The notes beneath the pieces were generated by a model, which saw only the letters and a program-made list of their open reading frames with translations, did no database searches and was not told where the DNA came from. Made by a program: the position numbers and the translations under genes. From contig WAQT01000059.1 in the NCBI GenBank assembly GCA_015520105.1, positions 1-57,683 of the forward strand: 57,683 bases of DNA. Reading direction: 5' to 3'. Shown here in pieces: positions 19,770 to 33,264 of this stretch. Source of the DNA: Candidatus Aenigmatarchaeota archaeon (GTDB taxonomy: Archaea; Aenigmatarchaeota; Aenigmatarchaeia; QMZP01). Position 1 is the stretch's first letter, and each line of letters starts with the position of its first letter.

Positions 19770-21050
19770 CTAAACACCAAGGTCTGTCGGGGCTCTCCCT
19801 ATTGAATGGAGAAGCTCCACTGTCTCGCTTATGTTCCTTTCTATTTCCTTGTCCCTGTCCGGCCTTCCCGGATATATGGTGTAATTCTCCCTGTATCTTC
19901 TGGGGGTAACGTTTATCATCAGGGAGTTGGCACCGGCAAGGAGGCCTTTCCTCTTTCCGTCCCTGTGAAGAGTCTCAAGAGCTGTGGTGACGAGTATCTT
20001 GGCATTCCTGTCGGCGAATCTCGATGCCGCGATAACCTTGAGAGCAAGGTTCAGGTCCGGAGGCGAACAGGACGCCAGAGGCGTCTGGGGGTGCTGTATG
20101 AATGGACCGAAGGACCACATGTCTGCCCTCAGCTCCCTTGTAAGGAGTATGTCATCGGCCAGGTCCTCCAGTGTCTGGCCAGGAAGGCCTATCATGAATC
20201 CCGTGGCAACTATGTAGCCAATCTCCTTGCAATGTCTTATGAGGGAGAGCCTCTCGTCAAAGTCCGCCTTCCTTCCATGGTGGAGGGAGGAGTAGAGCCT
20301 CCTGTTTGATGTCTCGAAACGGAGAAGTATCCCCCTCGCCCCTGCATTGTACATCCTTTCATACGTCTCCCTGCTTCTTGTTCCCACGCTCATGAACAGG
20401 AGGGCGTCGCATCTCTCCCTTATCTTACTTATGGTTTCCTCGAGAATCTGGGGGGTGTAGAAGGGGTCCTCTCCGGACTGGAGGACCAGCGCCCTGAAAC
20501 CGAGGTCGTTCACCGCATGCTCAGCGGCATTGGCTATCTCTTCAACTGTCATCCTGTACCTGCTCATCCGGGCATTGCTCTTCCTCAGCCCGCAGTAGAA
20601 GCAGTCGTTCCTGCAGTGGTTGGAGAACTCTATAATCCCGTGCACGCAGCAGGCATTCTCAAGGCTTTCCTTCCTCAGGGAGTTCGCGGTGCTGAACAGG
20701 TTGTTGAGATCCCTGTCAGGAGTCTTGAGTATGGAGAGTATTTCCTTCCTGGCTATGTTTCCGTTCTCAGCCTTCCTGACAAACTTTTCCAGCTTAGCTT
20801 CTTCAGGAGCGCGGGAGAAGGAATCGTCCCTCTTCTTCAGCTCGAAGAACAGCTCCTTCCAGGCATCGAGCGTCTGCCTGGCTTCCTCCTCAGGAACCTT
20901 GGCTATCACGAAGCCGCCTTGGGCATAGGCATAGTCTCCGACAGAAAGATTCTTAATCTCGTTGATGGCCCTCCTTCTTTCCCCGAAATAGTCTATTACA
21001 GCCCTGTTTCCCTCGAAAGCAACAACCCTTCCGGGTATGGCGTAGCACAT
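19770..21050 (-). CDS. hydE: HypC-domain / HydE fusion: an N-terminal HypC/HupF-like chaperone domain joined to the [FeFe]-hydrogenase radical-SAM maturase HydE
   Basis: Residues 1-72 (MCYAIPGRVVAFEGNRAVIDYFGERRRAINEIKNLSVGDYAYAQGGFVIAKVPEEEARQTLDAWKELF) follow the HypC pattern, including Cys2. The remainder matches HydE along its length: IIEFSNHCRNDCFYCGLRKSN, RYRMTVEEI, VLQSGEDP, LLRFETSN, GFMIGLPGQT, GPFIQHPQTPLA, TPRRYRENYTIYPGR. Confidence 0.88.
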   Translation of the reverse strand: MCYAIPGRVVAFEGNRAVIDYFGERRRAINEIKNLSVGDYAYAQGGFVIAKVPEEEARQTLDAWKELFFELKKRDDSFSRAPEEAKLEKFVRKAENGNIARKEILSILKTPDRDLNNLFSTANSLRKESLENACCVHGIIEFSNHCRNDCFYCGLRKSNARMSRYRMTVEEIANAAEHAVNDLGFRALVLQSGEDPFYTPQILEETISKIRERCDALLFMSVGTRSRETYERMYNAGARGILLRFETSNRRLYSSLHHGRKADFDERLSLIRHCKEIGYIVATGFMIGLPGQTLEDLADDILLTRELRADMWSFGPFIQHPQTPLASCSPPDLNLALKVIAASRFADRNAKILVTTALETLHRDGKRKGLLAGANSLMINVTPRRYRENYTIYPGRPDRDKEIERNISETVELLHSIGRAPTDLGV

Positions 21051-21068
21051 GGAATAATCTTGCCGGGA

Positions 21069-21080
21069 CGTATAATAAGG
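21069..21080 (-). promoter_or_regulatory. TATA-like box for hypC-hydE/hydG
   Basis: CCTTATTATACG on the minus strand, centred about 25 nt upstream of ATG 21050. Confidence 0.4.
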
Positions 21081-21089
21081 TTTTGTGAG

Positions 21090-21377
21090 TTAAGCGACCC
21101 TCGGACCCCTGAAGAACCCGTTCTCCTTGTTCTTCGTGTTGGAGAGCGCCTCTTCCTGCGGGAGCGAGGATTCGATTCTGTCATTCCTGAGTTTCTCGCT
21201 GATTTCTATGGGATGGAAGGAGGGTTTCACGTTCCTTGTGTCAGCCTTCGCTATCTTCCCGAAGGCTCGGAGTATCTCCTTCATGTCCCTTGAGAATTCC
21301 TCCTCCTCTTCAGGAGAGAGGATTATCCTCGCAAGCTTTGCCACCTTTCTTACAGTCTCCCTCCCAATCTCCGTCAT
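21090..21377 (-). CDS. gatC: Asp/Glu-tRNA amidotransferase subunit C
   Basis: VRKVAKLARIILSPEEEEEF...ADTRNVKP...LRNDR pattern. 95 aa. ATGA overlap with the mre11 stop. Confidence 0.8.
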   Translation of the reverse strand: MTEIGRETVRKVAKLARIILSPEEEEEFSRDMKEILRAFGKIAKADTRNVKPSFHPIEISEKLRNDRIESSLPQEEALSNTKNKENGFFRGPRVA

Positions 21378-22558
21378 TTTTCCTCCTTCGCGAATAATTC
21401 TTTGACAGAGCTCCTTAAAAAGGAGAGGCCGTCATCCTGCCTTCCGGAGCGCATGATGTCAAAGAGACTCTCAAACACTCGGCTGTTCAGGCCCATGGAT
21501 GAAAGATTCTCTTCCAGCAGCTTCCTTCCCAGTTCCTCCACAGAGAGTCTGTGCTCCTCTATGCTCCTTACAGGCTGCGCCTCGTCTCCTGTCCCTATAA
21601 GGCGGAAAGAGACCAGAGCGCTGCCGTGGAATTTCCTTGCTATCCCTGAAGCGTCGAGGACCTCACGATTCCGCGTCCTGAACCTTATTATCGGTTTCTT
21701 CTTATGCCTCTCCGAGAGTATCTCCTTTATTCTGGACTCTATTTTCTCTGCAGAGCCCTCTATGTCCTCGACATAGATCTTTCTCTGGTTCTCGAGCTCG
21801 TGAAACTCAAGCGCGGCTTTTTCCGTGTCCAGGGTCCAGAAGCCCCTCGGGCTGGCGGACTCTTTTGTTATCTGGGTGGTTATCAGCGAGCCGGGAATAA
21901 GCAGGGGGGAGCCGGAACAGGAGGCCTTTTTTGAGTCGTGCGCATGGCCGCACACGTAGAGGTCGAATCCCTTTGGGAGGACGGACAGGTCTATGGAATG
22001 GCTCGAGAACACGAACGGCTTCAGGGACTGGTGAAGCATGAGTATGTTGAAGCAACCCGCGAGCGGCTCTGGTTTCCAGTTCCTCAGAACGGCCTCGCTG
22101 TACTGGTCCGGGACTCCGGACATCCCGTGGATGCACACGCTTTCGTCCCCTTTCCTGAGAACCACGGAGTTGCAGTGGAGGTGTATCAGAAACCCGGCTT
22201 TTTCGAGGGCCTGCACGGGATTTATCAACCCCTTCGCCCTTCTTTCGTGAGTCCCGTGTATCGCTATGACAGGGATTCCGGAATGGTGCACGGGCGAAAG
22301 GCCTGTCACGTCCTTTCCGTCTCCGTTGAGTATGGAAACGTCAGAAGGAGAAGCAAGCGGTTCTATCAGTATCTCCATCGCCCTCGCAAGAACGTCTGTT
22401 CCCGGGTTTCTTGAGTCGAAGAGGTCGCCTGCAATAAGAATGGCGTCGCAGTCAATCGACTTTTTTATGGCCTCAGAGAACGCTTCGAAGCTGTCCTCCT
22501 CCCTCTCGGTCCCCCTCGCATAGCCTAGATGCACGTCCGAGATGACGGATATCTTCAT
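21374..22558 (-). CDS. mre11: DNA double-strand break repair nuclease Mre11 (calcineurin-like phosphoesterase)
   Basis: Motif I ISDVHLG, II IAGDLFD, III IHGTHER (Thr where GNH[DE] usually has Asn), IV MLHQS, V CGHAHD. Confidence 0.8.
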   Translation of the reverse strand: MKISVISDVHLGYARGTEREEDSFEAFSEAIKKSIDCDAILIAGDLFDSRNPGTDVLARAMEILIEPLASPSDVSILNGDGKDVTGLSPVHHSGIPVIAIHGTHERRAKGLINPVQALEKAGFLIHLHCNSVVLRKGDESVCIHGMSGVPDQYSEAVLRNWKPEPLAGCFNILMLHQSLKPFVFSSHSIDLSVLPKGFDLYVCGHAHDSKKASCSGSPLLIPGSLITTQITKESASPRGFWTLDTEKAALEFHELENQRKIYVEDIEGSAEKIESRIKEILSERHKKKPIIRFRTRNREVLDASGIARKFHGSALVSFRLIGTGDEAQPVRSIEEHRLSVEELGRKLLEENLSSMGLNSRVFESLFDIMRSGRQDDGLSFLRSSVKELFAKEEK

Positions 22559-22618
22559 GCAATTGCTTTGCAGGAGGGATTTATATTGGTTCTGAAATAG
22601 CGGAACCGTACGAGAACC

Positions 22619-23014
22619 CTAACAACATATCGGCGTAAATAACGTTCCAAAAAACCAGAGAAGGAAGAAGAAAACGCATATCATGAAATAAAGGAAAACC
22701 AGCATCTTTATTATGTTTCTCCGCCTGCTGTTTATTCCGTCGTAAGTGTAGATACATGCAACAAGATAAGCGATTACCAGATTTATGAAGAGTGCGACTA
22801 GAACAGGAAACGAGAAATAACTCAGAACGGAAACCGGTGAAGGAAACAAAACGCTCAAGGCCATTACCAGAATCATATACCCACCAAAGAACGGAAATAT
22901 TATTGGGTAGTGAGGAGTAGGGTCTATGAGAGGCAGAATCAGGAACAATGTCGCAAAAATCATAAGCCTCTTTTTGTTCGGCCTCAGTAATTCCTTAACT
23001 CTCATGTTATTCAT
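22619..23014 (-). CDS. Hypothetical integral membrane protein (4 TM)
   Basis: Hydrophobic throughout. 4-nt overlap with the upstream hemerythrin-like gene. Confidence 0.5.
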   Translation of the reverse strand: MNNMRVKELLRPNKKRLMIFATLFLILPLIDPTPHYPIIFPFFGGYMILVMALSVLFPSPVSVLSYFSFPVLVALFINLVIAYLVACIYTYDGINSRRRNIIKMLVFLYFMICVFFFLLWFFGTLFTPICC

Positions 23015-23448
23015 TTTTCTCGCTTCTTTTTATTTATGTACTCCGCGTATTTGCGGTCTTCCACTTCTATGTGATTCACCCAGGAGGAGAGGTAGTTCTT
23101 CGCTTCCTCAAGAAGCTCCCTGATGTCAACGGAGGAGAAGTTCGGGGAAGACGATTTCTCTATGAGCCGTTTCTGGAGCGAGAGGTAGAACCTGACAAAG
23201 CCCTGATGGATTTTTCTGTGGCTTTCGAGGCCCGGATAGCTGTTCCTCTCCATGTAATCCTCCTCGTATGCAAAATGTTCCTTTATATAGGTGTGGAGGA
23301 AATGAAGCGTTTCCCTCAATTGGCCTATGTTCACATCAAGCGAGGAGAGTATGGAAACGAGCCTGTCGAGATGCTCAAGAAGGCTTTTGTGCTGCTTGTC
23401 TATCATCCTCTCTCCCACAGACAGCTCAGAGCGCCAAGATGCCTCCAT
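23011..23448 (-). CDS. Hemerythrin-like metal-binding protein
   Basis: W.SELSVGERMIDKQHKSLL, HFAYEEDYM and HRKIHQGF match the bacteriohemerythrin His/Glu ligand pattern. Confidence 0.8.
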   Translation of the reverse strand: MEASWRSELSVGERMIDKQHKSLLEHLDRLVSILSSLDVNIGQLRETLHFLHTYIKEHFAYEEDYMERNSYPGLESHRKIHQGFVRFYLSLQKRLIEKSSSPNFSSVDIRELLEEAKNYLSSWVNHIEVEDRKYAEYINKKKREK

Positions 23449-23525
23449 GCTATAGAATTGGTCCCGCTTATTAATTAATCAGCACGGCTCTGAGAATCAA
23501 TTCCGTGAAAACGCGAAAATAATAT

Positions 23526-23549
23526 CGCTTTTGAGGTTTCAAAAAAGCG
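23526..23549 (-). terminator. Hairpin plus oligo-T terminator after aSUI1
   Basis: The minus strand reads CGCTTTTTTGAAACCTCAAAAGCG: 7-bp stem CGCTTTT/AAAAGCG with a T6 run. Confidence 0.4.
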
Positions 23550-23615
23550 GTATCAGAACGCAGAGAGAACCGATATTTTGGATATTCAAGTCCATGGAGC
23601 AATCAGCATGAGCGC

Positions 23616-23921
23616 TCATGCGATTTCGATGAGCTTCTCGTCGAATCCCAGCTTCACCAGAATCTGCTTCACCCTCTCTCCGTGGTTGCCCTGAAGTTCT
23701 ATATTTCCGTCCCTTATTATGCCTCCGCACGCCAGCCTGGTTTTAAGTTCCTTGAGAACCTTCTTTGGGTCGGCGTCCTTGCTTATGCCGCCGATTACAG
23801 TCACGTTCTTTCCGTACCTCTTCTTCTCAACAGATATCCTTATCTTCTCGCTTTCCTTCGCTATGGTCTCGCATACGCAGAGGTCCTTCGGCAGACCGCA
23901 CTTGTCGCAGATGTTATCCAT
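23616..23921 (-). CDS. Translation initiation factor aSUI1 (eIF1)
   Basis: N-terminal CDKCGLPKDLCVC followed by a SUI1 domain (VTVIGGISKD...LKTRLACGG...IELQGNH). Confidence 0.9.
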   Translation of the reverse strand: MDNICDKCGLPKDLCVCETIAKESEKIRISVEKKRYGKNVTVIGGISKDADPKKVLKELKTRLACGGIIRDGNIELQGNHGERVKQILVKLGFDEKLIEIA

Positions 23922-24145
23922 CAGCCAGCTTCCTCCTTTGCTTTCTTTCCCTGCATCTCCGCAAGAACAGTGTTTATTCTCGCTATAGACCTTCGTATCT
24001 CCTTTATTCTTCCCGGAGAAGTAACGTTCGCTCCCACATAGGCGTTCGCCTTTTCCTTCGAGAGTTCAAGCTTCAGCTCTGACATCTTCTTCTGGAGGGT
24101 GGGCATGTCCTGCTTCCTCAATTCAGACGCTTTCTCTCTTGCCAT
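23921..24145 (-). CDS. rpl29: Ribosomal protein uL29
   Basis: Helical 74-aa protein, LRKQDMPTLQKKMSELKLEL. Positioned after uS3. Confidence 0.85.
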   Translation of the reverse strand: MAREKASELRKQDMPTLQKKMSELKLELSKEKANAYVGANVTSPGRIKEIRRSIARINTVLAEMQGKKAKEEAG

Positions 24146-24192
24146 CCTTCACCTTTATTTTGTATTCGCGAATATAAAAATGAGGCTGAAAC

Positions 24193-24924
24193 TCATTTCG
24201 CTTTCTTCTGGTCTTTCTCCTCAAACTCCTCAAGCTTCTCCTCTTCGGGAAGCACTTCCTCAGCAATCTTGCTAATCTCGTCATCTGCATCCTGCCTCTT
24301 GGCTGGGGCACTCTCCTCTCCTTTTCTCTTCTTTGTTATCTCTCCTGTTATCTCCTGAAACTCCTTCATTATCTTCACTTTCACCCCTATCTTTCCGAGT
24401 TTGACAAGGGCCTCCTCAAAACCGTAATCCACAAGCGTCTTGGCCGGCTCTCCGCAGTGCTTGAGGTAGCCCTCCACAAACTTGGAGGACATGCTCTTTC
24501 CTCCTCCCATCTTTCCTGATATTATTATCTCAGCACCCACTGCCCCGGCATCCATTATCCTCTTTATCGTGAGATTCCCTATCTTCTTGAAGTTATAGCC
24601 TCTCTCAAGTGCGGAGGCTATCTGCTTTGCCACTATCTTTGCGTTGAGGTTGGGATTCCTTATCACCTTGACATCGAGCTGGGGGTTGTCGAGGCCGAAC
24701 CTCTGCTTTATGGCATCTGTCATCTCGTTTATGGTCTTTCCTCCCCTTCCTATTATCCTTCCAGGCTTGTGCGTGTATATCAATATCTTCACACCGAGGG
24801 GGGTTCTTTTTATCTCAGTGCCGGCATAATCTCCCTGAGGGAAGTGCTTTCTTATGAACTCCTCTATCTCAACCTCCTTTATTCCCTGTTTGACGAAGTA
24901 TTCCTTGAGCAGCATGCTATCCAC
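24193..24924 (-). CDS. rps3: Ribosomal protein uS3
   Basis: KH domain GRIIGRGGKTINEMT. The track start is a GTG; ATG at 24915 preceded by GGTGGA is an alternative. Confidence 0.9.
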   Translation of the reverse strand: MDSMLLKEYFVKQGIKEVEIEEFIRKHFPQGDYAGTEIKRTPLGVKILIYTHKPGRIIGRGGKTINEMTDAIKQRFGLDNPQLDVKVIRNPNLNAKIVAKQIASALERGYNFKKIGNLTIKRIMDAGAVGAEIIISGKMGGGKSMSSKFVEGYLKHCGEPAKTLVDYGFEEALVKLGKIGVKVKIMKEFQEITGEITKKRKGEESAPAKRQDADDEISKIAEEVLPEEEKLEEFEEKDQKKAK

Positions 24925-25141
24925 CGCACCCCCTCTCGCAGGTCTTTACTATATCAACCCTGTTCCTGTTATGCACAGCCACATCCGGAACTTCATATCC
25001 CGGAACTCCGAAGAACCTGTACACCCCATCCTCTTCCGACGGCTCTATGCCCAGCCGCGCGGCTATTCCCTGAGCGAGAATCTCGTCTCTCGTGATTATG
25101 TCATACTTCTTGAACGGGTTTATGTCATGCTCTCCTGTCAT
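24917..25141 (-). CDS. Unrecognised 74-aa ORF inserted between uL22 and uS3
   Basis: MTGEHDINPFKKYDIITRDEILAQGIAARLGIEPSEEDGVYRFFGVPGYEVPDVAVHNRNRVDIVKTCERGCGG. GAGGTGA lies 5 nt before its ATG, directly after the uL22 stop. Its own stop overlaps or abuts the uS3 start. Confidence 0.55.
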   Translation of the reverse strand: MTGEHDINPFKKYDIITRDEILAQGIAARLGIEPSEEDGVYRFFGVPGYEVPDVAVHNRNRVDIVKTCERGCGG

Positions 25142-25153
25142 TCTCTCACCTCG

Positions 25154-25537
25154 TCATCTCTGCTCCAGCACCACCTGAAGGTTCGTGACCTTCTTTTTCT
25201 CCCTCCTTCTCTTCATTCCTCTTGGCCTGTAATACGTGAATCCCTTATGAGCGGAAACATGAACAACCATTCTCGCAGGGTCGAGGCCCTTGAACTCGGC
25301 ATTGCTCTCCGCGCTTGCAAGCAGCCTCAGGATTTCCCCGGCAACACCGGTGTAGTGCTTTCCGGATATGCTGGTCTTCTGCTCTATGAGTTCTTCAAGG
25401 AATCTCTTTGCTTTCTGCAGGCTCATGCCGGTGACATGCCGGCATACAAGAGCGGAGGACTTTGTGGAGACAGCGAGTCCCCTGCCATACGCTCTGACGA
25501 CATTCCTGTTCTCCGGATTGTAAGCGTATGATGGCAT
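25154..25537 (-). CDS. rpl22: Ribosomal protein uL22
   Basis: AYGRGLAVSTKSSALVCRHVTGMSLQKAKRFLE is typical of archaeal L22. Confidence 0.9.
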   Translation of the reverse strand: MPSYAYNPENRNVVRAYGRGLAVSTKSSALVCRHVTGMSLQKAKRFLEELIEQKTSISGKHYTGVAGEILRLLASAESNAEFKGLDPARMVVHVSAHKGFTYYRPRGMKRRREKKKVTNLQVVLEQR

Positions 25538-25549
25538 GTTATCACAACC

Positions 25550-25933
25550 TTACTTGAGCGGAACATATTTGGATGACTTGGTCGCTCCGAATCCCGGTGC
25601 AGAGTGTCTGACCTGCTTTCTCGTGAGCGCATAGTCCCCGAGCCTGTCGCCGAGCATCTCAGGCTTTATCTGCACAGGCACGTATTCCTTTCCGTTGTAC
25701 ACGCCTATCTTCACCCCTATCATCTCCGGGATTATGACCATGTCCCTCGCATGGGTCTTATGAAAAGCGTTGGGATTCTTTCTTATGTCGAGGAGAAGCT
25801 TTTTCTGCAACTCTGTCAGGCCTCTCTTCAGGGCTCTCCTGCTTCTCGAGGGGATGAGCTGGGAAAATTCCTCCATGCTCATCTTCCTGAGCTCTTCCAG
25901 CGGTTTTCCCTTGTAGGTGAATTCTCTTGCCAT
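25550..25933 (-). CDS. rps19: Ribosomal protein uS19
   Basis: HARDMVIIPEMIGVKIGVYNGKEYVPVQIKPEMLGDRLGDYALTRK is typical of S19. Confidence 0.9.
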   Translation of the reverse strand: MAREFTYKGKPLEELRKMSMEEFSQLIPSRSRRALKRGLTELQKKLLLDIRKNPNAFHKTHARDMVIIPEMIGVKIGVYNGKEYVPVQIKPEMLGDRLGDYALTRKQVRHSAPGFGATKSSKYVPLK

Positions 25934-25937
25934 TCTC

Positions 25938-26035
25938 TTCGCCTTGTGACTTTAACTACGACTTTATGACTATCACTCAGTCCAACATATTGCTGCTGCC
26001 TGTTCGATCGATGTTAGCAGCCCAGCTCTCCTGTG
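25938..26035. repeat. Repeat copy A (diverged, ~80% identical to copies B and C) in the uL2-uS19 spacer
   Basis: Starts TTCGCCTTGTGACTT and ends CTCCTGTG. Retains the internal hairpin GCTG-CTGC / GCAG-cc-CAGC with a 17-nt loop. Confidence 0.85.
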
Positions 26036-26048
26036 CGACAGTTACGGA

Positions 26049-26078
26049 GACTGCACAGGCAATCGGTTCGGTGCAGTC
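26049..26078. repeat. Hairpin module H1 (stem GACTGCAC/GTGCAGTC, 14-nt loop AGGCAATCGGTTCG)
   Basis: Flanked by the conserved GACAGTTACGGA...CCAG. Covaries with H2 and H3. Confidence 0.85.
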
Positions 26079-26089
26079 CAGCTCACCAA

Positions 26090-26113
26090 CGCCTTGTGAC
26101 TTTCACTCCATGT
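26090..26113. repeat. Internally deleted mini-copy of the repeat (CGCCTTGTGACTT...)
   Basis: Shares the first 13 nt of the repeat, then jumps to the pre-hairpin GTGACAGTGACGGAG segment. Confidence 0.7.
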
Positions 26114-26125
26114 GACAGTGACGGA

Positions 26126-26155
26126 GACACGACGTGAAAACGGTTCGGTCGTGTC
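26126..26155. repeat. Hairpin module H2 (stem GACACGAC/GTCGTGTC, 14-nt loop GTGAAAACGGTTCG)
   Basis: Same flanks and geometry as H1 and H3. Confidence 0.85.
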
Positions 26156-26255
26156 CAACTGACTTCGCCTTCCGACTTGCAATGCACATTTTCTTTGCGC
26201 ATGCGAGCGTGAGCGCATGGTTTCAGTGAGTTATGCGTTCCGTGCTATATAAGCT

Positions 26256-26927
26256 TTACTTCTTCCTCCTTCCGGAACGCCTCGGTGATATCGAGCCGAC
26301 CTTTCTTCCGGGCGGCGCGTTCCTGGAGACGCTCTTGTGTTTTCCAAGACCGCTGTACCCAGCTCCGAACGGGTGGTCGACAGCGTTCATCGCGACTCCG
26401 GACGTTCTTGGATAGAGCTTTCCTCTCCTGTGCATAGCTATCCATTTCTTTCCTGCCTTGAGCATCGGTTTCTCCTTCCTTCCCTCCCCCGCAGGCACGC
26501 CAACCGTAACCCTGCAATCTGGATGAAGCTTCTTGGTTTTCTTTGACGGAAGCTGGATTATGCACTCCTTCTCGCTTCTTGCGACAACTATCGCGGCGGA
26601 GCCCGAGGTTCTGCACAGTTTCGGACCGGAATTCGGATATGTTTCTATCGAAAAGACTTTTGTTCCTTCGGGGACCTGCGAAACAGGCATTACGTAACTC
26701 TTAAGGTTCTCTCCCACCTTCATGCCCTCCGGGGCTATTATATATCCTTTGTTCCCATCAGCGTACTCCACCACAGCAAGGGGAGCGTTCATGAGAGGAT
26801 AGCTTATTATATCAACGACCTTCCCGCCGACCGGCCTGTAGGCTACCAACGGCTTGAACTTCCTCTCCGGCACCCTGTACGTGAGGGTGCCTCTTCCCCT
26901 TCTCTGCTGTATTATTCTTTTTCCCAT
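26256..26927 (-). CDS. rpl2: Ribosomal protein uL2
   Basis: MGKRIIQQRRGRG..., GVAMNAVDHPFGAG. Start moved to MGKR; the track's upstream extension runs into the repeat. Confidence 0.9.
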   Translation of the reverse strand: MGKRIIQQRRGRGTLTYRVPERKFKPLVAYRPVGGKVVDIISYPLMNAPLAVVEYADGNKGYIIAPEGMKVGENLKSYVMPVSQVPEGTKVFSIETYPNSGPKLCRTSGSAAIVVARSEKECIIQLPSKKTKKLHPDCRVTVGVPAGEGRKEKPMLKAGKKWIAMHRRGKLYPRTSGVAMNAVDHPFGAGYSGLGKHKSVSRNAPPGRKVGSISPRRSGRRKK

Positions 26928-26928
26928 C

Positions 26929-27029
26929 CTTTCGCCTTGTGACTTGAACCTACGACCTTGCAACTACCACACTACGCAACATGCTGCGACTGCCTGTTCA
27001 TCCTGTGTTAGCAGTCCAGCTTTCCTGTG
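26929..27029. repeat. Repeat copy B (101 nt, identical to copy C), ending 1 nt from the uL2 start codon
   Basis: Character-by-character identity with 27080..27180. Internal hairpin GCTG-c-GACTGC / GCAGTC-CAGC (26983..27020) with a 17-nt loop. Confidence 0.95.
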
Positions 27030-27042
27030 TGACAGTGACGGA

Positions 27043-27072
27043 GACGTGACGTGCAATCGGTTCGGTCACGTC
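27043..27072. repeat. Hairpin module H3 (stem GACGTGAC/GTCACGTC, 14-nt loop GTGCAATCGGTTCG)
   Basis: Lies in the 50-nt spacer between copies B and C. Same flanks as H1 and H2. Confidence 0.9.
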
Positions 27073-27079
27073 CAGTTTT

Positions 27080-27180
27080 CTTTCGCCTTGTGACTTGAAC
27101 CTACGACCTTGCAACTACCACACTACGCAACATGCTGCGACTGCCTGTTCATCCTGTGTTAGCAGTCCAGCTTTCCTGTG
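27080..27180. repeat. Repeat copy C (101 nt, identical to copy B)
   Basis: Period 151 nt relative to copy B. Begins 4 nt after the stop of the 27185..27373 ORF in minus-strand orientation. Confidence 0.95.
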
Positions 27181-27184
27181 CGAG

Positions 27185-27373
27185 TTATCTTATCTCTTCC
27201 ACTATTCTGACCTTTGCCATGTATTCGTCCAGAGCGGTTATCTGGAACCAGTACAGCGTTCCATCGTCCGCCCTGACGAGATAGTGCTCCCCAACCACGG
27301 GATTGTGGAATTTCTCCTTTCTTATGTAGAGGTTTCCCACTGGTTGTATCGGATAGGGATTATGAGCGTCCAT
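27185..27373 (-). CDS. Unrecognised 62-aa ORF inserted between uL23 and uL2
   Basis: MDAHNPYPIQPVGNLYIRKEKFHNPVVGEHYLVRADDGTLYWFQITALDEYMAKVRIVEEIR. The context TGAGGCTGATATG places a GAGG SD 6 nt before the ATG, overlapping the uL23 stop. The track start 27394 would overlap uL23. Confidence 0.45.
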   Translation of the reverse strand: MDAHNPYPIQPVGNLYIRKEKFHNPVVGEHYLVRADDGTLYWFQITALDEYMAKVRIVEEIR

Positions 27374-27380
27374 ATCAGCC

Positions 27381-27662
27381 TCACAGCATTCCAAGCCTTG
27401 AAGCGATGTCAGCTGCAGAGTAGTCGGGATGCAGCCTGACGTACGCCTTCTTCTCGCCCTTTCTCGTTATCTCAAGATTCACCTTGCTGACCCTGACATC
27501 GAATATTCCTTCAACCTCTCTCTTCACATCCTTCTTTGTAGCATTTCTTCTGACTATGAACACCAGCTTGTTCTCCATTTCTACAAGGTTCATGGATTTC
27601 TCTGCAAGATGGGGATGCATCAGGAATTTCCACTGCGCCGACTGGGTATTCTTCTCTGCCAT
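27381..27662 (-). CDS. rpl23: Ribosomal protein uL23
   Basis: KLVFIVRRNATKKDVKREVEGIFDVRVSKVN is typical of L23. Confidence 0.9.
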   Translation of the reverse strand: MAEKNTQSAQWKFLMHPHLAEKSMNLVEMENKLVFIVRRNATKKDVKREVEGIFDVRVSKVNLEITRKGEKKAYVRLHPDYSAADIASRLGML

Positions 27663-27663
27663 A

Positions 27664-28497
27664 TCACTCGCCTGCCTTCTTCTTTGCAGGAGCGTTCGCT
27701 TCCTTTTCTGAAAGTCTGGCCAGCTGACTCACCGCGGACTCTGTAATTATGCAAAGCCTGCCCGCCATGCTTCCCGGGGCCAGAGCTTCCACAGAGAGCG
27801 TTCCTGCCTCTGCCACGTCCACGCCCGGTATGTTTCTCGCTGCTCTTGATATTCCTTTGTCCTCTGCAACTATTATGAGAGGACCCTTCTTCTTCCTGTA
27901 TCTCCTTCCCCTTGAGGTTCCCTTTCCCGGCCTCACCTTCTTCTCCTTGGCCCTGCTTATCTCCTCGGAAAGGCCGACCTTCTCGAGAAATTCCATAACA
28001 TCCTTTGTCTTCCTGAGTTCCTGAAGCCTGTCCTCAACTATTAATGGAACATGCTTGAGCGAGTCTATCCTGTGGCCCCTTGACGCCACAATCTCCTTTA
28101 CAGCGGATGCGGAGACAGCGGAGAGAATGGCCGCTATCCTTTCCTTCTTGTTGAGCTTCCTCTCCCATGATTTCTCAGGCTTCGGCGGATGGGCCTTTCT
28201 TCCTTTCACCGCCTGCGGGACCACCCTCGCTGTCATGTGAAGATAACCTGAACCGTGAATCCTTTTCATTCTTGCCATCTCGCGGTTCATCATGCTGTGC
28301 CTTATTCCTCTCCTTCCGTGATAATGAGCGGAGGAGCGCATTCCGGCAAGCGCATCTGTCCCGTACGGTTGCCTTCTTGCTGCCTGTTCTGCAACAACCG
28401 CCCTCCACACGAGGTCTTCCCTCACGGGATGAGAAAAAACAGCTGAGCTAATGCTTCCTTTGACTTCTCCTTTCAGGCTATAGACCGGTATTTTCAT
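27664..28497 (-). CDS. rpl4: Ribosomal protein uL4
   Basis: YGTDALAGMRSSAHYHGRRG and PGKGTSRGRRYRKKKGPLIIV. GGAGG lies 6 nt upstream of the ATG. Confidence 0.9.
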   Translation of the reverse strand: MKIPVYSLKGEVKGSISSAVFSHPVREDLVWRAVVAEQAARRQPYGTDALAGMRSSAHYHGRRGIRHSMMNREMARMKRIHGSGYLHMTARVVPQAVKGRKAHPPKPEKSWERKLNKKERIAAILSAVSASAVKEIVASRGHRIDSLKHVPLIVEDRLQELRKTKDVMEFLEKVGLSEEISRAKEKKVRPGKGTSRGRRYRKKKGPLIIVAEDKGISRAARNIPGVDVAEAGTLSVEALAPGSMAGRLCIITESAVSQLARLSEKEANAPAKKKAGE

Positions 28498-28570
28498 ATC
28501 AGCCCTCCAATGATTGCGATTCCGAATCGACGCCCTTAACTCGGCGTTAGGTATGGAATAGATATGTTAA

Positions 28571-28587
28571 CTATATATATTTAAAGG
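28571..28587 (-). promoter_or_regulatory. TATA box of the uL4 operon (CCTTTAAATATATATAG on the minus strand)
   Basis: About 75-90 nt upstream of the uL4 ATG. The leader contains a small hairpin ACGCC-GAGTTAA-GGCGT. No uL3 gene lies upstream. Confidence 0.45.
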
Positions 28588-28613
28588 TATTTCACTCTTC
28601 GCTCATGGCATGT

Positions 28614-29594
28614 TCACTTAAGCCATAGCACATCGACATCATCTGTCCTCTCGTTCGGGTATATATCAGGTTTCACTGTTCTATTGCCTGAGGAGTATGA
28701 GAGAATTCCTGTCCATGCAATCATCGCGCCGTTGTCTCCTGAGAACTCCTTCGGAACGGAATGGAATCTCGCTCCCCTCTCCCTGCACATCGTTTCAAGC
28801 ATTTCCCTGAGCCGGGAATTGGCAGCCACGCCTCCCGTGACTATGACCTCGTCCTTTCCTGTATGCGAAAGGGCTCTCTCTGTCACCTCGGTCAGCATCG
28901 CAAAAAGCGTCTCCTGGAGGGAGAAGCACACATCCTCAAGTTTCTCTCCTGATTTGAGTTTTCTGAGCGCCTCTGTAACTATGCCTGAGAAGGAGAGGTC
29001 CATTCCCTTCACCGTGTAGGGAAGTTCTATGTATTTTCTCGACTCCCGAGCGAGCCTCTCTATCTCCGGGCCAGCCGGAAAGCCAATGCCAGCGCTTCTC
29101 CCGAACTTGTCGAGGGCGTTGCCTATGCCTATGTCCATTGTCTCGCCGAACGTCCTGTAGCGGCCTTCCGAGAAGGACAGGACCTGCGTGTTTCCTCCGG
29201 AGACGTAGAGCACAACCGGGTCCCTTGCTTTTGTGAAGAGTTTTGCTATCTCTATATGCGCTATGCAGTGGTTCACTCCAACAACAGGTATTCCATTCTC
29301 TTTCGAGAACCGGAGAGCGGCGTCCAGGCCTTTTCTCAGGCAGGGAGGAAGTCCCGGACCATGCGAATATGCGACGAGGGATATGTCTTTGGAAGACAGG
29401 CCAGCCTTCAGGAGGCCGGACTCCACGATTTGGGAGGAGACCCTTTCATGATGCGCGGCAGCGTCTGCAGGCTTTATTCCCCAGCCCTTCGGCGGGACAT
29501 ACGTATCCGAAACATTGGAAAGAACCTTTCCGTCAGAGGACACGATGCCTGCGCCGAACGTGTGCGCAGTGCTCTCTATTCCAAGGCATATCAT
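28614..29594 (-). CDS. kae1: tRNA N6-adenosine threonylcarbamoyltransferase Kae1
   Basis: MICLGIESTAHTFGAGIV, VNHCIAHIE, VTGGVAANSRLREM, FSGDNGAMIA. Start set at MICLGIEST. The 168 upstream codons of the track ORF run into the start of the opposite-strand antiporter gene (29670..31358). Confidence 0.9.
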   Translation of the reverse strand: MICLGIESTAHTFGAGIVSSDGKVLSNVSDTYVPPKGWGIKPADAAAHHERVSSQIVESGLLKAGLSSKDISLVAYSHGPGLPPCLRKGLDAALRFSKENGIPVVGVNHCIAHIEIAKLFTKARDPVVLYVSGGNTQVLSFSEGRYRTFGETMDIGIGNALDKFGRSAGIGFPAGPEIERLARESRKYIELPYTVKGMDLSFSGIVTEALRKLKSGEKLEDVCFSLQETLFAMLTEVTERALSHTGKDEVIVTGGVAANSRLREMLETMCRERGARFHSVPKEFSGDNGAMIAWTGILSYSSGNRTVKPDIYPNERTDDVDVLWLK

Positions 29595-29669
29595 GCAATC
29601 ACTTCCTTCCTTTTGACAAGTTTCCAATTTATTTAACCCGGCGCGCGCATAAATATATAAACAGATAGA

Positions 29670-31358
29670 ATGACGAACGCTCTTCTTGTTGACATAGGGA
29701 TTATAATAGTATTTGCCACTCTCCTTGCTTATGCTGCAAGGTATCTCAGGCAACCGCTTCTCGTGGCCTACATCGCAACAGGCATTATTCTGGGAAACAT
29801 CACCGGATTCATTGGAAACCTCTCTGAGATAAGCATGCTCGCTGATTTCGGAATAGCGCTTCTTTTGTTCACGATAGGGCTCGAGATAGACGTGCAGAAG
29901 CTCAAGAGCGTTGGGAGGGCATCGTTTATAGGCGGTGTCGTGCAGATAGCAGCCACCTTCTCGCTTGGTTATATAATCTCCCTGGTTCTTGGCCTTGACG
30001 GAGTGACAGGACTCTATATAGGCGCTCTGGTTGCATTCAGCAGCACCATGATAGTGGCAAAGCTCCTCGTGGACAGGAACGAGATAAACACCCTTCACGG
30101 AAGGATAATGATAGGAGTCCTCCTCCTGCAGGACCTTCTTGTGATAATGATGATTCCCGTGCTGAAGAGCATAGACGGCGCCTTTGCTTTCGACGTCTTC
30201 ACGGACTCCATGATAAACGGACTCGGTCTCTTTGCCATCGCAATTGTGCTGAACAGGTTTGTGTTCAGGCCTGTGCTTGACAGGGTGTCCCGTTCCAGCG
30301 AGCTTCTCTTCCTCACCACAGTGTCAGTCGCCTTCGCGTTCATCTCCGTGTCAGCCATATTGAACTTCCCGATAGCGATAGGGGCGTTCTTTGGAGGAAT
30401 AGCGCTTGCGCGGAGCCCCTATAACATAGAGATATACAACAAGATGAGGAGCCTCAGGGACTTCTTCCTCGTGATATTCTTCTCCACGCTCGGGCTTCAG
30501 CTCGATTTCTCCGCTCTTGGAGGAATGTTAAACGAGTTTGTTGTCATTCTTCTCCTTGTGGTTATTGTGAAACCGGTCATCCTCTCGCTTATATACCTGA
30601 TCATGGGTTATGGGGGGAGAACGTCCTCTATAATAGGGCTCGGGATGGGTCAGGCGAGTGAGTTTTCATTCATACTCGCTTCGCTCGGTCTGGCTTTCGG
30701 CCACATCTCGAACGGCGTGTTCTCCCTTATCATAAGCGTGATGATAGTCTCAGCGATACTAACTCCCTACTTCATGAAGTTCAGGAAGCGGATATATGCT
30801 TTTTTTGCCGGGAGGCGTCTTCCGGGAAAGAGATTTTTTGGAAGCCCGAGATACGTGGAAAGGATACAGAGGAAACCCGGCGACGGCTTGAGCAACCATG
30901 TGGTGGTGTTCGGATGCGATGTGATGGGACGGAGGCTTGTGAACTATCTGAAAGGGCTGGGCGTAAAGTTCATAGTGGTGGAGCACAATCCTGAGGTGAT
31001 AAAGGAGCTTGCCGGAGAGGATGTATACGCTCTTTATGGAGATGCGGACAATGAGGAGATTCTGAGGGAGGCAGGAGTGTACAGGGCAAAGATAGCTATA
31101 GTGACTATACCTGATACAGATGTTTCAGGTTTCATCACAGCAAAGGCCAAGAGGCACAATCCCGGAATAAAGGTTTACGCCAGAGCGCATTCAGAGGAGG
31201 ATGCAAGGCTTCTCTACTCCACTGGCGCAGACTTTGTGGTTGTTCCGGACTTCGTGAGCGGCGGAACGATAATAAGGAAGCTCGAAAGCGTGTTCGGGAA
31301 CAGGAGGGCAAGGAACCATTTCAGGCATCTTGATATAAGAAAAAAGAATCATGGATGA
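29670..31358 (+). CDS. Kef-type monovalent cation:proton antiporter (CPA2) with a C-terminal RCK/TrkA-N domain
   Basis: About 12 TM helices (LLVAYIATGIILG...), then a Rossmann segment VVVFGCDVMGRRL...VVEHN. Confidence 0.85.
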   Translation: MTNALLVDIGIIIVFATLLAYAARYLRQPLLVAYIATGIILGNITGFIGNLSEISMLADFGIALLLFTIGLEIDVQKLKSVGRASFIGGVVQIAATFSLGYIISLVLGLDGVTGLYIGALVAFSSTMIVAKLLVDRNEINTLHGRIMIGVLLLQDLLVIMMIPVLKSIDGAFAFDVFTDSMINGLGLFAIAIVLNRFVFRPVLDRVSRSSELLFLTTVSVAFAFISVSAILNFPIAIGAFFGGIALARSPYNIEIYNKMRSLRDFFLVIFFSTLGLQLDFSALGGMLNEFVVILLLVVIVKPVILSLIYLIMGYGGRTSSIIGLGMGQASEFSFILASLGLAFGHISNGVFSLIISVMIVSAILTPYFMKFRKRIYAFFAGRRLPGKRFFGSPRYVERIQRKPGDGLSNHVVVFGCDVMGRRLVNYLKGLGVKFIVVEHNPEVIKELAGEDVYALYGDADNEEILREAGVYRAKIAIVTIPDTDVSGFITAKAKRHNPGIKVYARAHSEEDARLLYSTGADFVVVPDFVSGGTIIRKLESVFGNRRARNHFRHLDIRKKNHG

Positions 31359-32021
31359 TTATATTTTCTTTATTTTTCCCGGAACCGGCTCATAGCATAT
31401 ACCTTCCTCAAGAAGCTCTGTAACAGCGGCGTCAATGGAGTTTTCATCAGCGCTGATGCTGTTCATTATGGCCGAGAATTCAACTCCGTCAGGATTTGAT
31501 TCTATTATTTTCAGAATCTCCCTTTTCAGCTCGCCTCTGTCTGCAGAGCTCTTCATGACATCACCGTCTGGTTTTTCAACATCCTGCGGGACGCTGCCAA
31601 AGGCCCTAAGATATTTCGCTATCTCCAGCCTTCTCAGAATCTCGAAGTTGGGGTCGCGAATTATAGCAGCTGTCTCAGGCATTATGTATATCTCTCCGTT
31701 ATATTCCCTGAGCTTTCCTGTGACATCCACTATATCTCCTGCATTCACGTTTTCCAGAGGGAAGAGCGACTTGAATGTTTTTGCCCTTATTGTTCCTGTG
31801 AAATCATCAAGAGTGATGCTCGCAAATCCTGAATCTTCAGCAACAAATTTTCCGACAACTGTTCCAAGAACCCTTACGCGGGAGAGCTTGTCCCCATATG
31901 CTGTAGCAACAAAACTCGGCTCGAAACCCTCTCTTTTTATCCATTCTCCCTGGAGAATATCCTTTATCCTTACCTTTTTTGCGGTCATCCTTTCCATTGG
32001 CATAGAGAATATTTGCATCAA
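31359..32021 (-). CDS. OB-fold DNA-binding protein with a C-terminal winged helix (RPA32/Stn1-like architecture)
   Basis: OB segment VRVLGTVVGKFVAEDSGFASITLDDFTGTIRAKTF...VDVTGKLREYNGEIYI. C-terminal ILKIIESNPDGVEFSAIMNS...LLEEGICYE. Confidence 0.5.
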   Translation of the reverse strand: MMQIFSMPMERMTAKKVRIKDILQGEWIKREGFEPSFVATAYGDKLSRVRVLGTVVGKFVAEDSGFASITLDDFTGTIRAKTFKSLFPLENVNAGDIVDVTGKLREYNGEIYIMPETAAIIRDPNFEILRRLEIAKYLRAFGSVPQDVEKPDGDVMKSSADRGELKREILKIIESNPDGVEFSAIMNSISADENSIDAAVTELLEEGICYEPVPGKIKKI

Positions 32022-32247
32022 TCATTTATAAGCGCTGGTGCGCATCCAGAGACAGCGGAAATCCGCATTTTATGTTTCAAACGATGACATTATTCCCGAA
32101 GGCGGAACAGGAAGTGTAGTGGATGTTTCTGTGGCAGGCAATCGCGCATTAAATCACTATATTGGAATATAGAAATGTTTAAAAGAAGACTGTTACAAGA
32201 ATGCTACAAAGTCTTTTCTACCGGACGTGCGGAAGGTGCTATAACTA

Positions 32248-32388
32248 ATGACATGCCACGACTGCAATCGGAAAAAGATATTGAGGGTGTGCGAGACTCA
32301 CAACCCCAAGGGAGCAAGAATCTGTAAGGACTGCTGCATAGACAAGATGCGCGGTCACGGATGTAAATGGTTCGATGTGTGCTGGTAA
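32248..32388 (+). CDS. Candidate 46-aa Cys-rich microprotein (below the track cutoff)
   Basis: Hand translation: MTCHDCNRKKILRVCETHNPKGARICKDCCIDKMRGHGCKWFDVCW (8 Cys, 3 His; CxxC...CxxC ribbon spacing). AGGTG lies 10 nt upstream. Preferred over the antisense 89-aa track ORF 32204..32473. Confidence 0.4.
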   Translation: MTCHDCNRKKILRVCETHNPKGARICKDCCIDKMRGHGCKWFDVCW

Positions 32389-32519
32389 TAGATAACCCTT
32401 CTCTATTATAACAACGAGTAGATATGTAAATTCGGTTCTCGCTGCCTCCTGATATCACAAAAATCGCTACCATTCCGCGGTTTCAGGGAATTGAGTTCTG
32501 AGAACAGATGGTGTTTCGA

Positions 32520-32528
32520 TTTATATAT
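32520..32528 (+). promoter_or_regulatory. TATA box (TTTATATAT) for the E1-like gene
   Basis: Ends 19 nt upstream of ATG 32548, suggesting a leaderless transcript. The TTG track start at 32491 precedes the TATA. Confidence 0.45.
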
Positions 32529-32547
32529 CATCAGCAACATTATTGTT

Positions 32548-33264
32548 ATGGACTATGAGAGGTATTCAAGGCAGATAGGCGTTCTGGGAGAGGAAGGCCA
32601 GGCAGCGCTTGAGAGAGCAAAAGTCGTGGTGGTGGGTGCCGGAGGGCTTGGGAACACAGTGGCTTCCCTGCTCGCAAGAATGAATGTCTCGAGGATAAGG
32701 ATAATAGATTCCGACCTTGTGGAGGTCTCAAACCTCCCGAGATGCATGATTTTTGACGAAAGCGATGTGGGACGCTCAAAAGCGGAGATTCTGAAGAACA
32801 CGATAGCAAAGATAAACTCGAGCATCAAGGTCGGAATGATAGACGAGGACCTTAACGAGTCCAGCCTTCACCTTCTTGACGGCTTTGACATCATAATGGA
32901 CTGCACGGACAACATGAACGCAAGGCATCTCATAAACAGGTACAGCATCGCAAACCGGGTTCCATGGGTTTACGGCTCTGTCTCAAGAGACGTGGGGTTT
33001 GTCGGAACGTTCAGCGGAAGGAGTCCGTGCTTCGCGTGCGCGTTCCCCGAAGAAAAGAATCCTCCTGAGGACATGATTCCGCAGAAAGGCCTTCATTCCG
33101 CAATACCAAACATAATAGGAAGCATTCAGGTTTCAGAGGCCGTGAGAGTGCTGACAGGAAACCCCTCTTTCGGAAAGCTTGTTCACTTCTCCCTCAACGG
33201 GCCTTCGCTCTCTGTATCTGTGATAAGAAAGAATCCGCGCTGCGGAGTGTGCAAGGGAGAATGA
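32548..33264 (+). CDS. ThiF/MoeB/HesA-family E1-like adenylyltransferase
   Basis: YSRQIGVLGEEGQ, VVVVGAGGLGN, DLVEVSNLPR, and zinc Cys pairs CFAC and CGVC. Confidence 0.8.
   Translation: MDYERYSRQIGVLGEEGQAALERAKVVVVGAGGLGNTVASLLARMNVSRIRIIDSDLVEVSNLPRCMIFDESDVGRSKAEILKNTIAKINSSIKVGMIDEDLNESSLHLLDGFDIIMDCTDNMNARHLINRYSIANRVPWVYGSVSRDVGFVGTFSGRSPCFACAFPEEKNPPEDMIPQKGLHSAIPNIIGSIQVSEAVRVLTGNPSFGKLVHFSLNGPSLSVSVIRKNPRCGVCKGE

Follow-up and report, generated by a model that had tools for sequence, protein, structure and literature searches.

Interspersed mosaic repeats built from hairpins are well known in bacteria. The closest described systems are the BOX elements of Streptococcus pneumoniae (boxA-boxB(n)-boxC), the repetitive extragenic palindromic (REP) sequences of enterobacteria and pseudomonads, which form bacterial interspersed mosaic elements (BIMEs) and are known to affect mRNA stability, and the miniature inverted-repeat transposable elements (MITEs) that carry expression signals, such as the Correia elements of Neisseria. 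To our knowledge, mosaic hairpin repeats are hardly documented in archaea, and none has been documented in the streamlined genomes of DPANN symbionts. Here a family of this kind is described for a Candidatus Aenigmatarchaeota archaeon (GCA_015520105.1), starting from a perfect 101-nt direct duplication at 26,928-27,184 of contig WAQT01000059.1, of which the whole length of 57,683 nt was analysed (hereafter the window). The duplication lies in a ribosomal-protein operon, between uL23 and the small gene orf62 on one side and uL2 on the other. The best reading of the comparisons made here is that the family is a lineage-specific recombining mosaic repeat, BOX/BIME-like in organization, and the 101-nt duplication is probably its youngest event; its modules would be transcribed, RNA-folding leaders that recombine through a shared head and tail and are kept where expression is still possible.

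The window is one contig (C59) of a genome of 797 kb in 66 contigs, 88% complete and with 50% G+C (G000), and the closest relatives of its uL2 are found in Aenigmatarchaeota metagenome-assembled genomes (MAGs). The operon is on the minus strand in the order uL4, uL23, orf62, uL2, uS19, uL22, orf74 and uS3. The spacer 5' of uL2 (257 nt) consists of two copies of a composite block, B+C copies A and B, and a hairpin module (H) that stands between them and continues directly into copy B; the spacer 5' of uS19 (322 nt) contains one complete H unit, one H module that lacks a tail, and a third B+C copy, besides a TATA-like box and a fragment of a tail (Table 1). As a sequence-only reading of this DNA had stated, both a repeat search and blastn gave 26929-27029 and 27080-27180 as a 101-nt pair without mismatch, spaced at a period of 151 nt, and the identity stretches to 104 nt at 99% (26929-27032 versus 27080-27183). 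The third copy, in the next spacer (25938-26035), is 77% identical with small indels, close to the value of about 80% given there, and the copies do end in GTCACAAGGCGAA 3 nt before the ATG of uL2 and 4 nt before that of uS19. The 10-bp bulged hairpin with a 17-nt loop proposed for each copy came close to the computed fold of copies A and B (104 nt, minus strand), a stem of 11 bp that has a single bulged G and closes a loop of 15 nt; in the diverged copy a reduced hairpin is kept, of 6 bp by computation instead of 4+4 bp. The proposal of a recent duplication was upheld; the local pair is the only 100% pair among the copies of the family and thus marks its most recent event.

The 101-mer, taken at first for a single element, turned out to be a composite of two modules, B and C, and the "hairpin module" between its copies, the importance of which had been missed, is the main and most abundant unit of the family. 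The H unit (~78 nt) runs ..GUGAGUUGGAC, a 9-bp stem and loop, GUCUCCGUMACUGUCRCAYAGGAUGG, and then the tail AAGUCAYAAGGCGAAAG. Module B (~53 nt; CAGGAAAGCUGGACUGCUAACACAGGAUGAACAGGCAGUCGCAGCAUGUUGMAC) forms another hairpin, the loop of which (CUAACA..GAACAGG) is conserved, and module C (~48 nt; ..GAUAGU..AAAGUCGUAGNUNAAGUCAYAAGGCGAAAG) carries the same tail as H. All module types share this tail and the head CAGGAAAGCUGGAC (..AGGAAAGYUGGAC), and they are always strung head to tail, on one strand per array. The H module of the uL2 spacer was matched by nhmmer at 27078-27023 and by a covariance model (CM), built from 21 full H units, at 27006-27080 with 58 bits. The motif AAGTCACAAGGCG occurs five times in the window, against 1.15 expected when two mismatches are allowed.

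The genome-wide blastn search that had been suggested gave further copies across the genome, with 33 matching places for the 151-nt period. These dispersed relatives of the 101-mer bear out the claim that a small-repeat family has colonized an essential operon. A total of 33 H units were detected by nhmmer and 33-35 by the CM, with ~10 copies each of B and C, in 13 head-to-tail arrays of 1 to ~6 units that lie on 11 contigs and make up ~4.0 kb, or 0.5% of the assembly. The 33 hairpin units are short extragenic imperfect palindromes, all outside open reading frames (ORFs), and the left ends of the arrays are ragged, with truncated modules. Multi-module blocks of 165 nt and 161 nt are 96-98% identical between two arrays (C31 and C40b), the middles of which differ. 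The contig that carries the first of these (C31, 4.8 kb, array at 3800-4280; the other at C40 6445-6895) could represent either a variant from another strain or a genuine second locus.

The position of the arrays relative to genes is regular. All 12 arrays that are followed by a same-strand gene or tRNA are co-oriented with it, and in nine of the 13 arrays the last base of the model stands 1-2 nt before the ATG of a Pfam-supported gene, namely uL2, uS19, aEF-2, aEF-1beta, IscU, a radical-SAM NrdG-like activase, DUF373, a metallophosphoesterase and a 631-amino-acid (aa) TIM-barrel protein. With ~900 genes in 0.8 Mb, a random site falls 1-2 nt before a start with a chance of ~0.001 per array, so the placement is far from random. 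One further array (C7b) is followed by the canonical AAGGAGGUGA and then by the ATG of a 57-aa ORF that corresponds to the NrdD glycyl-radical C-terminus (Pfam NRDD positions 526-562 of 562), another (on C12) ends 4 nt before a tRNA gene, and the near-identical arrays C31 and C40b abut no start codon. Canonical TATA boxes (TTTATAAA, TTATATAG) lie upstream of several arrays, which suggests that the arrays are transcribed leaders. The TTATATA box after the uL2 stop is likely an internal promoter, judging from its sequence, and the second array of the window is therefore probably the 5' leader of uS19; the related genome G001 carries tttttataatacttatataa at the matching position.

The sequence-only reading had further held that the element supplies the Shine-Dalgarno (SD) sequence for uL2 and uS19. 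When GAUCACCUCCU was assumed as anti-SD, AAGGCGAA paired with it at -4.6 kcal/mol, no better than shuffled tails (mean -5.2 kcal/mol, 53% at least as good). The corresponding values are -9.5 and -10.3 kcal/mol for the native leaders of G001, -15.9 kcal/mol for the SD retained before nrdD-C, and -9.8 kcal/mol for the internal module junction GGCGAAGGUGAG. The 3' end of 16S rRNA was not found in the G000 MAG or in five relatives; the 5-mers enriched upstream of 837 long ORFs are GGAGG, GGUGA, GUGAU and GAGGU, which indicates that the organism uses the canonical anti-SD. GGCGA occurs 13 times upstream of long ORFs, mostly from the arrays. The repeat tail occupies the SD site but, by these predicted energies, is a poor SD in G000, which leaves the claimed SD role unsupported. 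In a genome of another genus (G013), the tail is AAGGUGAU, a good SD.

The evidence for a conserved hairpin comes from covariation. The middle pairs of the H stem are variable and covarying, and among the 21 seed units compensatory double changes were found at four of the nine stem pairs. When 44 units from G000 and the genus g13 were aligned to the CM, 98.6% of the stem cells were paired, with compensatory changes at seven of the nine pairs and 109 double-change cells against 36 +/- 4 in shuffles; pairing fell to 39-57% when the 3' partner was slid as a control. Since the stem of the g13 units differs markedly in sequence and their loop has 3-5 nt (GGAAGUYGGC-GAA-GCCGACUUCUCC), the hairpin is conserved as a shape. 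The wobbles are G-U or U-G in the sense orientation only, A-C cells being absent from the eight inner pairs, and one position of the B stem is A-U, G-U or G-C among the copies; these states make a fold in the sense RNA mildly more likely than a cruciform in DNA. As a separate observation, the two strands of the 16S decoding site (E. coli 1402-1408 and 1491-1505, GAAGUCGUAACAAGG) have a look-alike in every H unit, CCGUCAC ... GAAGUC-ACAAGG (e.g., tail 26931-26947, minus strand); no covariation in the alignment supports such pairing, and the likeness may be due to chance.

Comparison with relatives, which had been proposed as a check for empty sites, showed that the junctions are indeed empty in sister genomes. 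In G001, which belongs to the same genus (uL2 75% identical), the order is uL4-uL23-uL2-uS19-uL22-uS3 without orf62, the gaps are 10 nt (uL23-uL2) and 45 nt (uL2-uS19), and GAGGTG stands 7 nt before the uL2 ATG, a native SD region that is replaced by the module tail in G000. Likewise, the nrdD-N/nrdD-C and nrdD-C/nrdG gaps of G001 are ~14 nt (UAAGAGGUGAUAAU only) and ~6 nt, against module-filled spacers of 281 and 450 nt in G000, so the arrays have entered junctions that were originally tight. The two uL2 gaps measure 1-107 nt in 25 other Aenigmatarchaeota, barring two loci without uS19 within ~390 nt, and no H unit was found next to uL2 in any of them.

The distribution of the family is patchy. 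It was detected by the CM in only one of 40 relatives. The tail motif is present at least two times in five of 371 genomes of the class (G000, 18; G055, 10; G054, 3; G013, 2; G303, 2), and no H unit was found in G303 or in four single-hit genomes. All five genomes of the genus g13, the only other genus with related units, gave matches at E 0.1 or better, 14 of the matches being in G055. The g13 units are also co-oriented, and a start codon, for example that of eS8 or eS27a, follows several of them at 3-4 nt. The junctions of the ribosomal operon are compact in G055, and related units stand at other genes than in G000; such non-orthologous sites in two genera favor movement over inheritance of a fixed leader. 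A metagenome scan with the 15-nt tail gave only single chance matches, with an H unit in none of 80 loci. The G055 loci L143-L154 carry further module types with a CUGUCACAAGGCGAA tail, such as UUGACGACCUUAACCAACAUAACAAAGUCGUCUUUCCAAA, and arrays more varied than those of G000.

Exact-protein look-ups led to three other assemblies of the same population, GCA_027054295.1, REYS20-1 and JOHN19-1. In JOHN19-1, a ~95% identical strain, scaffold_881265 reads stop-UGUUGCG-[H]-[B+C], copy A being absent. Between this strain and the window, orf62 encodes an identical protein with nine synonymous and no non-synonymous differences (pS 0.23 over 38.7 sites), which identifies it as a real, constrained gene. 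The H+B+C segment differs at 8 of 126 alignable bases (0.063), significantly less than the synonymous sites of orf62 (8/126 versus 9/38.7; Fisher p = 0.0055), and none of the eight differences falls in either stem, five being in the B loop. The slower divergence is suggestive of arrays that do not drift freely, and they are thus probably not inert.

On this evidence, the explanation that we consider probable is as follows. The modules would occupy transcribed 5' leaders and intercistronic junctions, where the shared head and tail would offer homology for unequal crossing-over or gene conversion. Such recombination could duplicate modules (the 151-nt period), delete them (JOHN19-1), and copy multi-module blocks between leaders, and arrays would survive only between a promoter or an upstream stop codon and the next start, where expression is unbroken. 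Transcribed within the mRNA and folded there, the arrays would most likely insulate or stabilize the downstream cistron as a structured leader.

Several points weigh against this explanation. Transcription, RNA folding and the copy number at 26.9-27.2 kb are inferred from sequence, and no mobility enzyme or mechanism was identified. The B+C folds do not exceed shuffled sequence in stability (z -0.06 to -0.47), and the same is true of the H module and of either whole spacer, so that the case for structure must rest on covariation; the alignment of 44 units, being made with the CM, is biased towards the modeled structure, and the covariation also fits a cruciform or a single-stranded substrate at the DNA level. 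The slow divergence of the arrays rests on one strain pair, and gene conversion could give the same picture. Finally, the spacing of 1-2 nt to the ATG is too precise for a simple tolerated insertion and hints at targeting or at a specific function outside this explanation.

This precision leads to the main rival and the more interesting one, a dedicated cis-regulatory leader, which we regard as possible but, on balance, unlikely. The modules would bind, or be processed by, a trans-acting factor (an RNA-binding protein or an endoribonuclease) that co-regulates housekeeping genes, possibly by cutting the transcript at the conserved tail, beside the AUG, so that leaderless mRNAs result, and changes in copy number would be fine-tuning, not selfish spread. 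Such a role would account for the tail being 1-2 nt from the ATG in nine arrays and 4 nt from the 5' end of a tRNA in another, for the poor SD, which calls for some other initiation route, and for the slower-than-synonymous divergence with untouched stems. Across two genera, conservation is seen in the single-stranded motifs and not in the hairpin sequence, which is free to vary, and the target genes are mostly of translation and core metabolism. The family is, however, absent from a same-genus genome and from nearly the whole class, so that no conserved regulon exists, and the genes served differ between the two genera. Array length varies from 1 to ~6 units without pattern, the near-identical arrays C31 and C40b abut no start, and no candidate factor was found.

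A bolder form, which we hold to be decidedly unlikely, regards the modules as portable "cistron starters", RNA cassettes of which the GUCAYAAGGCGAA junction would be cut or remodeled at the AUG by a lineage-specific factor to give leaderless or SD-independent messages, the DNA copies spreading by recombination at the same junction or at the hairpin. If true, they would be an archaeal counterpart of structured recombination sites of the attC/REP type that double as a translation-initiation device.

That the perfect duplication is an assembly artefact, by expansion or mis-joining of a repeat with the H path taken from another locus or strain, is quite improbable. In favor of an artefact, G000 is a short-read MAG, the duplication rests on assembled sequence, and two other assemblies break inside the repeat. 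The contig of GCA_027054295.1, which covers the uL2-uS19-... segment with three mismatches in 3258 nt, begins at 27013 inside copy B, and scaffold_1559 of REYS20-1 (ENA), identical to the window from uL4 through orf62, ends at 27126. A single B+C copy is present in the related strain, and the C-tail-to-H junction of the window recurs on C40, 5' of the DUF373 gene, at 96% over 80 nt. The REYS20-1 scaffold, on the other hand, independently confirms the junction from the orf62 stop to B and breaks off after precisely 55 nt of the perfect repeat in copy A, as expected of a k=55 graph when a 55-mer has two left contexts. The window and C40 junctions differ at diagnostic bases (TCACAAGG versus TCATAAGG; GTCGTAGG versus GTCGCAGG), so the former was not borrowed from the latter, and stop-BC-H-BC-ATG is the only path that uses each junction once. 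The end of the REYS20-1 scaffold, the start of the GCA_027054295.1 contig inside copy B, the recurrence of the C-tail-to-H junction on C40 and the JOHN19-1 sequence also lend the duplication indirect support. The EF-1beta and nrd arrays are the same in near-identical assemblies, an exact-protein look-up for IscU gave no record, and a metagenome scan for the window-specific BC-to-H junction gave no match.

The labels of MITE and REP-like element, which the sequence-only reading had attached to the repeat, did not hold. A strict non-autonomous transposon, be it a MITE, a REP mobilized by a RAYT-type or IS200/IS605 enzyme, or a substrate of an integrase acting on the folded hairpin, would agree with the high copy number in one lineage, with orthologous sites that are empty in relatives, and with a hairpin that, like those of REP and attC sites, keeps its structure but not its sequence; we nevertheless judge it very improbable. 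No terminal inverted repeats bound the modules or arrays, a repeat search giving only unrelated 14-nt arms more than 600 nt apart, and the palindromes present are internal hairpins. Filled sites show no duplicated flank when compared with the empty G001 sites, so target-site duplications are likewise missing from array and module ends. All units have a single head-to-tail orientation, array left ends are ragged with truncated modules, and viral contigs gave no match to the family. No Y1/RAYT or TnpB gene was found: PF01797 had no match and PF07282 only a sub-threshold match, in a genome the 88% completeness of which leaves absence unproven.

Hardly tenable is the reading of the arrays as escaped tRNA-intron material removed by the splicing endonuclease at bulge-helix-bulge motifs, since, although the T-loop introns of G000 are built of a hairpin plus ..UGUCGUA..CAGGAUAACAAGGCAA modules in the shared motif order hairpin-UGUCGYA-CAGGAU-ACAAGGCRA and two arrays adjoin tRNA genes (C6, C12), the H-unit hidden Markov model had no match in four intron regions with filters off and E up to 100 (a lack of nhmmer homology that lowered this reading to a minor rival), the CM found none in the introns, no bulge-helix-bulge was seen in minimum-energy or consensus folds (no dedicated search for this motif was made), and the similarity of module C to the tRNA T-arm is not significant (E 0.05-0.7).

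Several tRNA genes of G000 carry introns of 130-180 nt in the T-loop, after GGTTCAAA or TTCGA, composed of repeated hairpin modules (C6 10780-11200, C10 5080-5700, C12 4320-4580, C27 8350-8560), which explains why ARAGORN finds only eight tRNAs in the whole genome.

Other identities were considered and set aside. A CRISPR array does not fit units that abut without spacers and themselves vary. A known Rfam family is not indicated, as cmscan of 20000-33000 (E up to 1) gave only one irrelevant weak match. Module C as a pseudo-tRNA was suggested by a T-arm look-alike (GGTTCAAGTC), but the tRNA matches by blast have the E values given above and diverged copies lose the motif; ARAGORN detected no tRNA within the window. 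For a C/D-box or K-turn small RNA, only partial strings were seen by eye (AUGAUAG, CUGA), never a full C/D set. The units are unlikely to be promoters: YAUAGR stands ~25 nt before the ATG, but the TATA boxes lie upstream of the arrays.

Table 1. Genes and repeat modules of the ribosomal-protein operon segment, listed in the direction of transcription
Feature	Position	Strand	Details	Support
uL4	28497-27664	-		
uL23	27662-27381	-		
orf62	27185..27373	-	orphan 62-aa gene between uL23 and array	
B+C copy A	27080..27183	-	104 nt; starts 1 nt past orf62 stop; B hairpin 27134-27171	
H module without own tail	27033..27079	-	9-bp hairpin 27042-27073, 14-nt loop, then GUCUCCGUCACUGUCACA	
B+C copy B	26929..27032	-	ends 1 nt before uL2 ATG; B hairpin 26983-27020	
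uL2	26256..26927	-	223 aa; ATG 26927-26925	Pfam Ribosomal_L2_N/C
TATA-like box TTATATA	26246..26252	-	directly 3' of uL2 stop	read from the sequence
Full H unit	26086..26163	-	hairpin and tail; uL2-uS19 spacer	CM 88.4 bits; nhmmer match; fold
Second H module, tail-less	26029..26086	-	uL2-uS19 spacer; continues into third B+C copy	nhmmer, CM, fold
Third B+C copy	25936..26038	-	diverged, 77% identical; ends 2 nt before uS19 ATG	
uS19	25550..25933	-	127 aa; 3' of second array; ATG 25933-25931	Pfam Ribosomal_S19

Apart from the repeats, the ribosomal operon seems to gather small orphan genes in these lineages. An orphan ORF of 74 aa (orf74; C-terminal ..CERGCGG; 24917-25141, minus strand) lies between uL22 and uS3, and g13 genomes carry other unrelated small ORFs (68-80 aa) at the uS19/uL22 and uL22/uS3 junctions. 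The orf62 gene is absent from the same operon in both G001 and G055, and orf62, orf74 and orf68 of G013 have no Pfam match, no paralogue and no mutual similarity. In the nrd operon, nrdD is split in G000 (C7 3198-7166, minus strand) and in G001 (L161 1600-1900) into a 656-aa ORF and the 57-aa ORF, in which the glycyl-radical motif (SRIVGYFRPV) and the second Cys pair of the zinc site are found, and is a single ORF in the genus g13; from these sequences, the split gene may encode a natural two-piece anaerobic ribonucleotide reductase.

Repeats that make up 0.5% of the DNA, inside essential operons, are unexpected for a streamlined DPANN genome. They offer a natural experiment in which archaeal cistrons tolerate or exploit the exchange of the ribosome-binding region for a structured leader with a poor SD, and a case of rapid repeat turnover without a recognizable transposase. 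If the abutment on start codons reflects mechanism and not selection, an as yet undescribed way of processing RNA or initiating translation would be indicated. A practical warning is that short-read assemblies of ribosomal-protein and nrd operons come apart at such repeats.

The BOX type of organization is present in G000, H, B and C being joined through the common head and tail without an encoded protein. As in BOX, short modules stand in a fixed order with one module variable in number, and the repeats are intergenic near gene starts, are predicted to form stable RNA hairpins, lack a transposase and are confined to one lineage. BOX differs in being bacterial and unrelated in sequence, the G000 arrays are all co-oriented with the downstream gene, and we know of no report of BOX elements that abut start codons within 1-2 nt or replace the SD. 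With REP/BIME the G000 arrays share extragenic hairpins in operons, mosaic clusters, and conservation of structure over sequence. BIMEs, however, alternate the orientation of REP, whereas the G000 units run head to tail without exception; the usual place of REPs is after genes, but the G000 units precede them, lack a conserved head of the GTAG type, and are found without a RAYT (Y1) gene. Correia-type MITEs are likewise small, non-coding, gene-adjacent and co-transcribed, can supply expression signals, and are polymorphic between strains, but MITEs have terminal inverted repeats and target-site duplications, whereas the G000 arrays have neither and are tandem and modular. Within G000 itself, the T-loop tRNA introns are similar as tandem modules of a hairpin and a conserved single-stranded tail (..ACAAGGCRA) in discardable RNA; they differ from the arrays, which lie outside tRNA genes and show no bulge-helix-bulge in the predicted folds, and have no detectable homology to H. 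The family is thus set apart from BOX and BIME in that it has no known mobilizing enzyme, is archaeal, keeps a single orientation and is fused to start codons.

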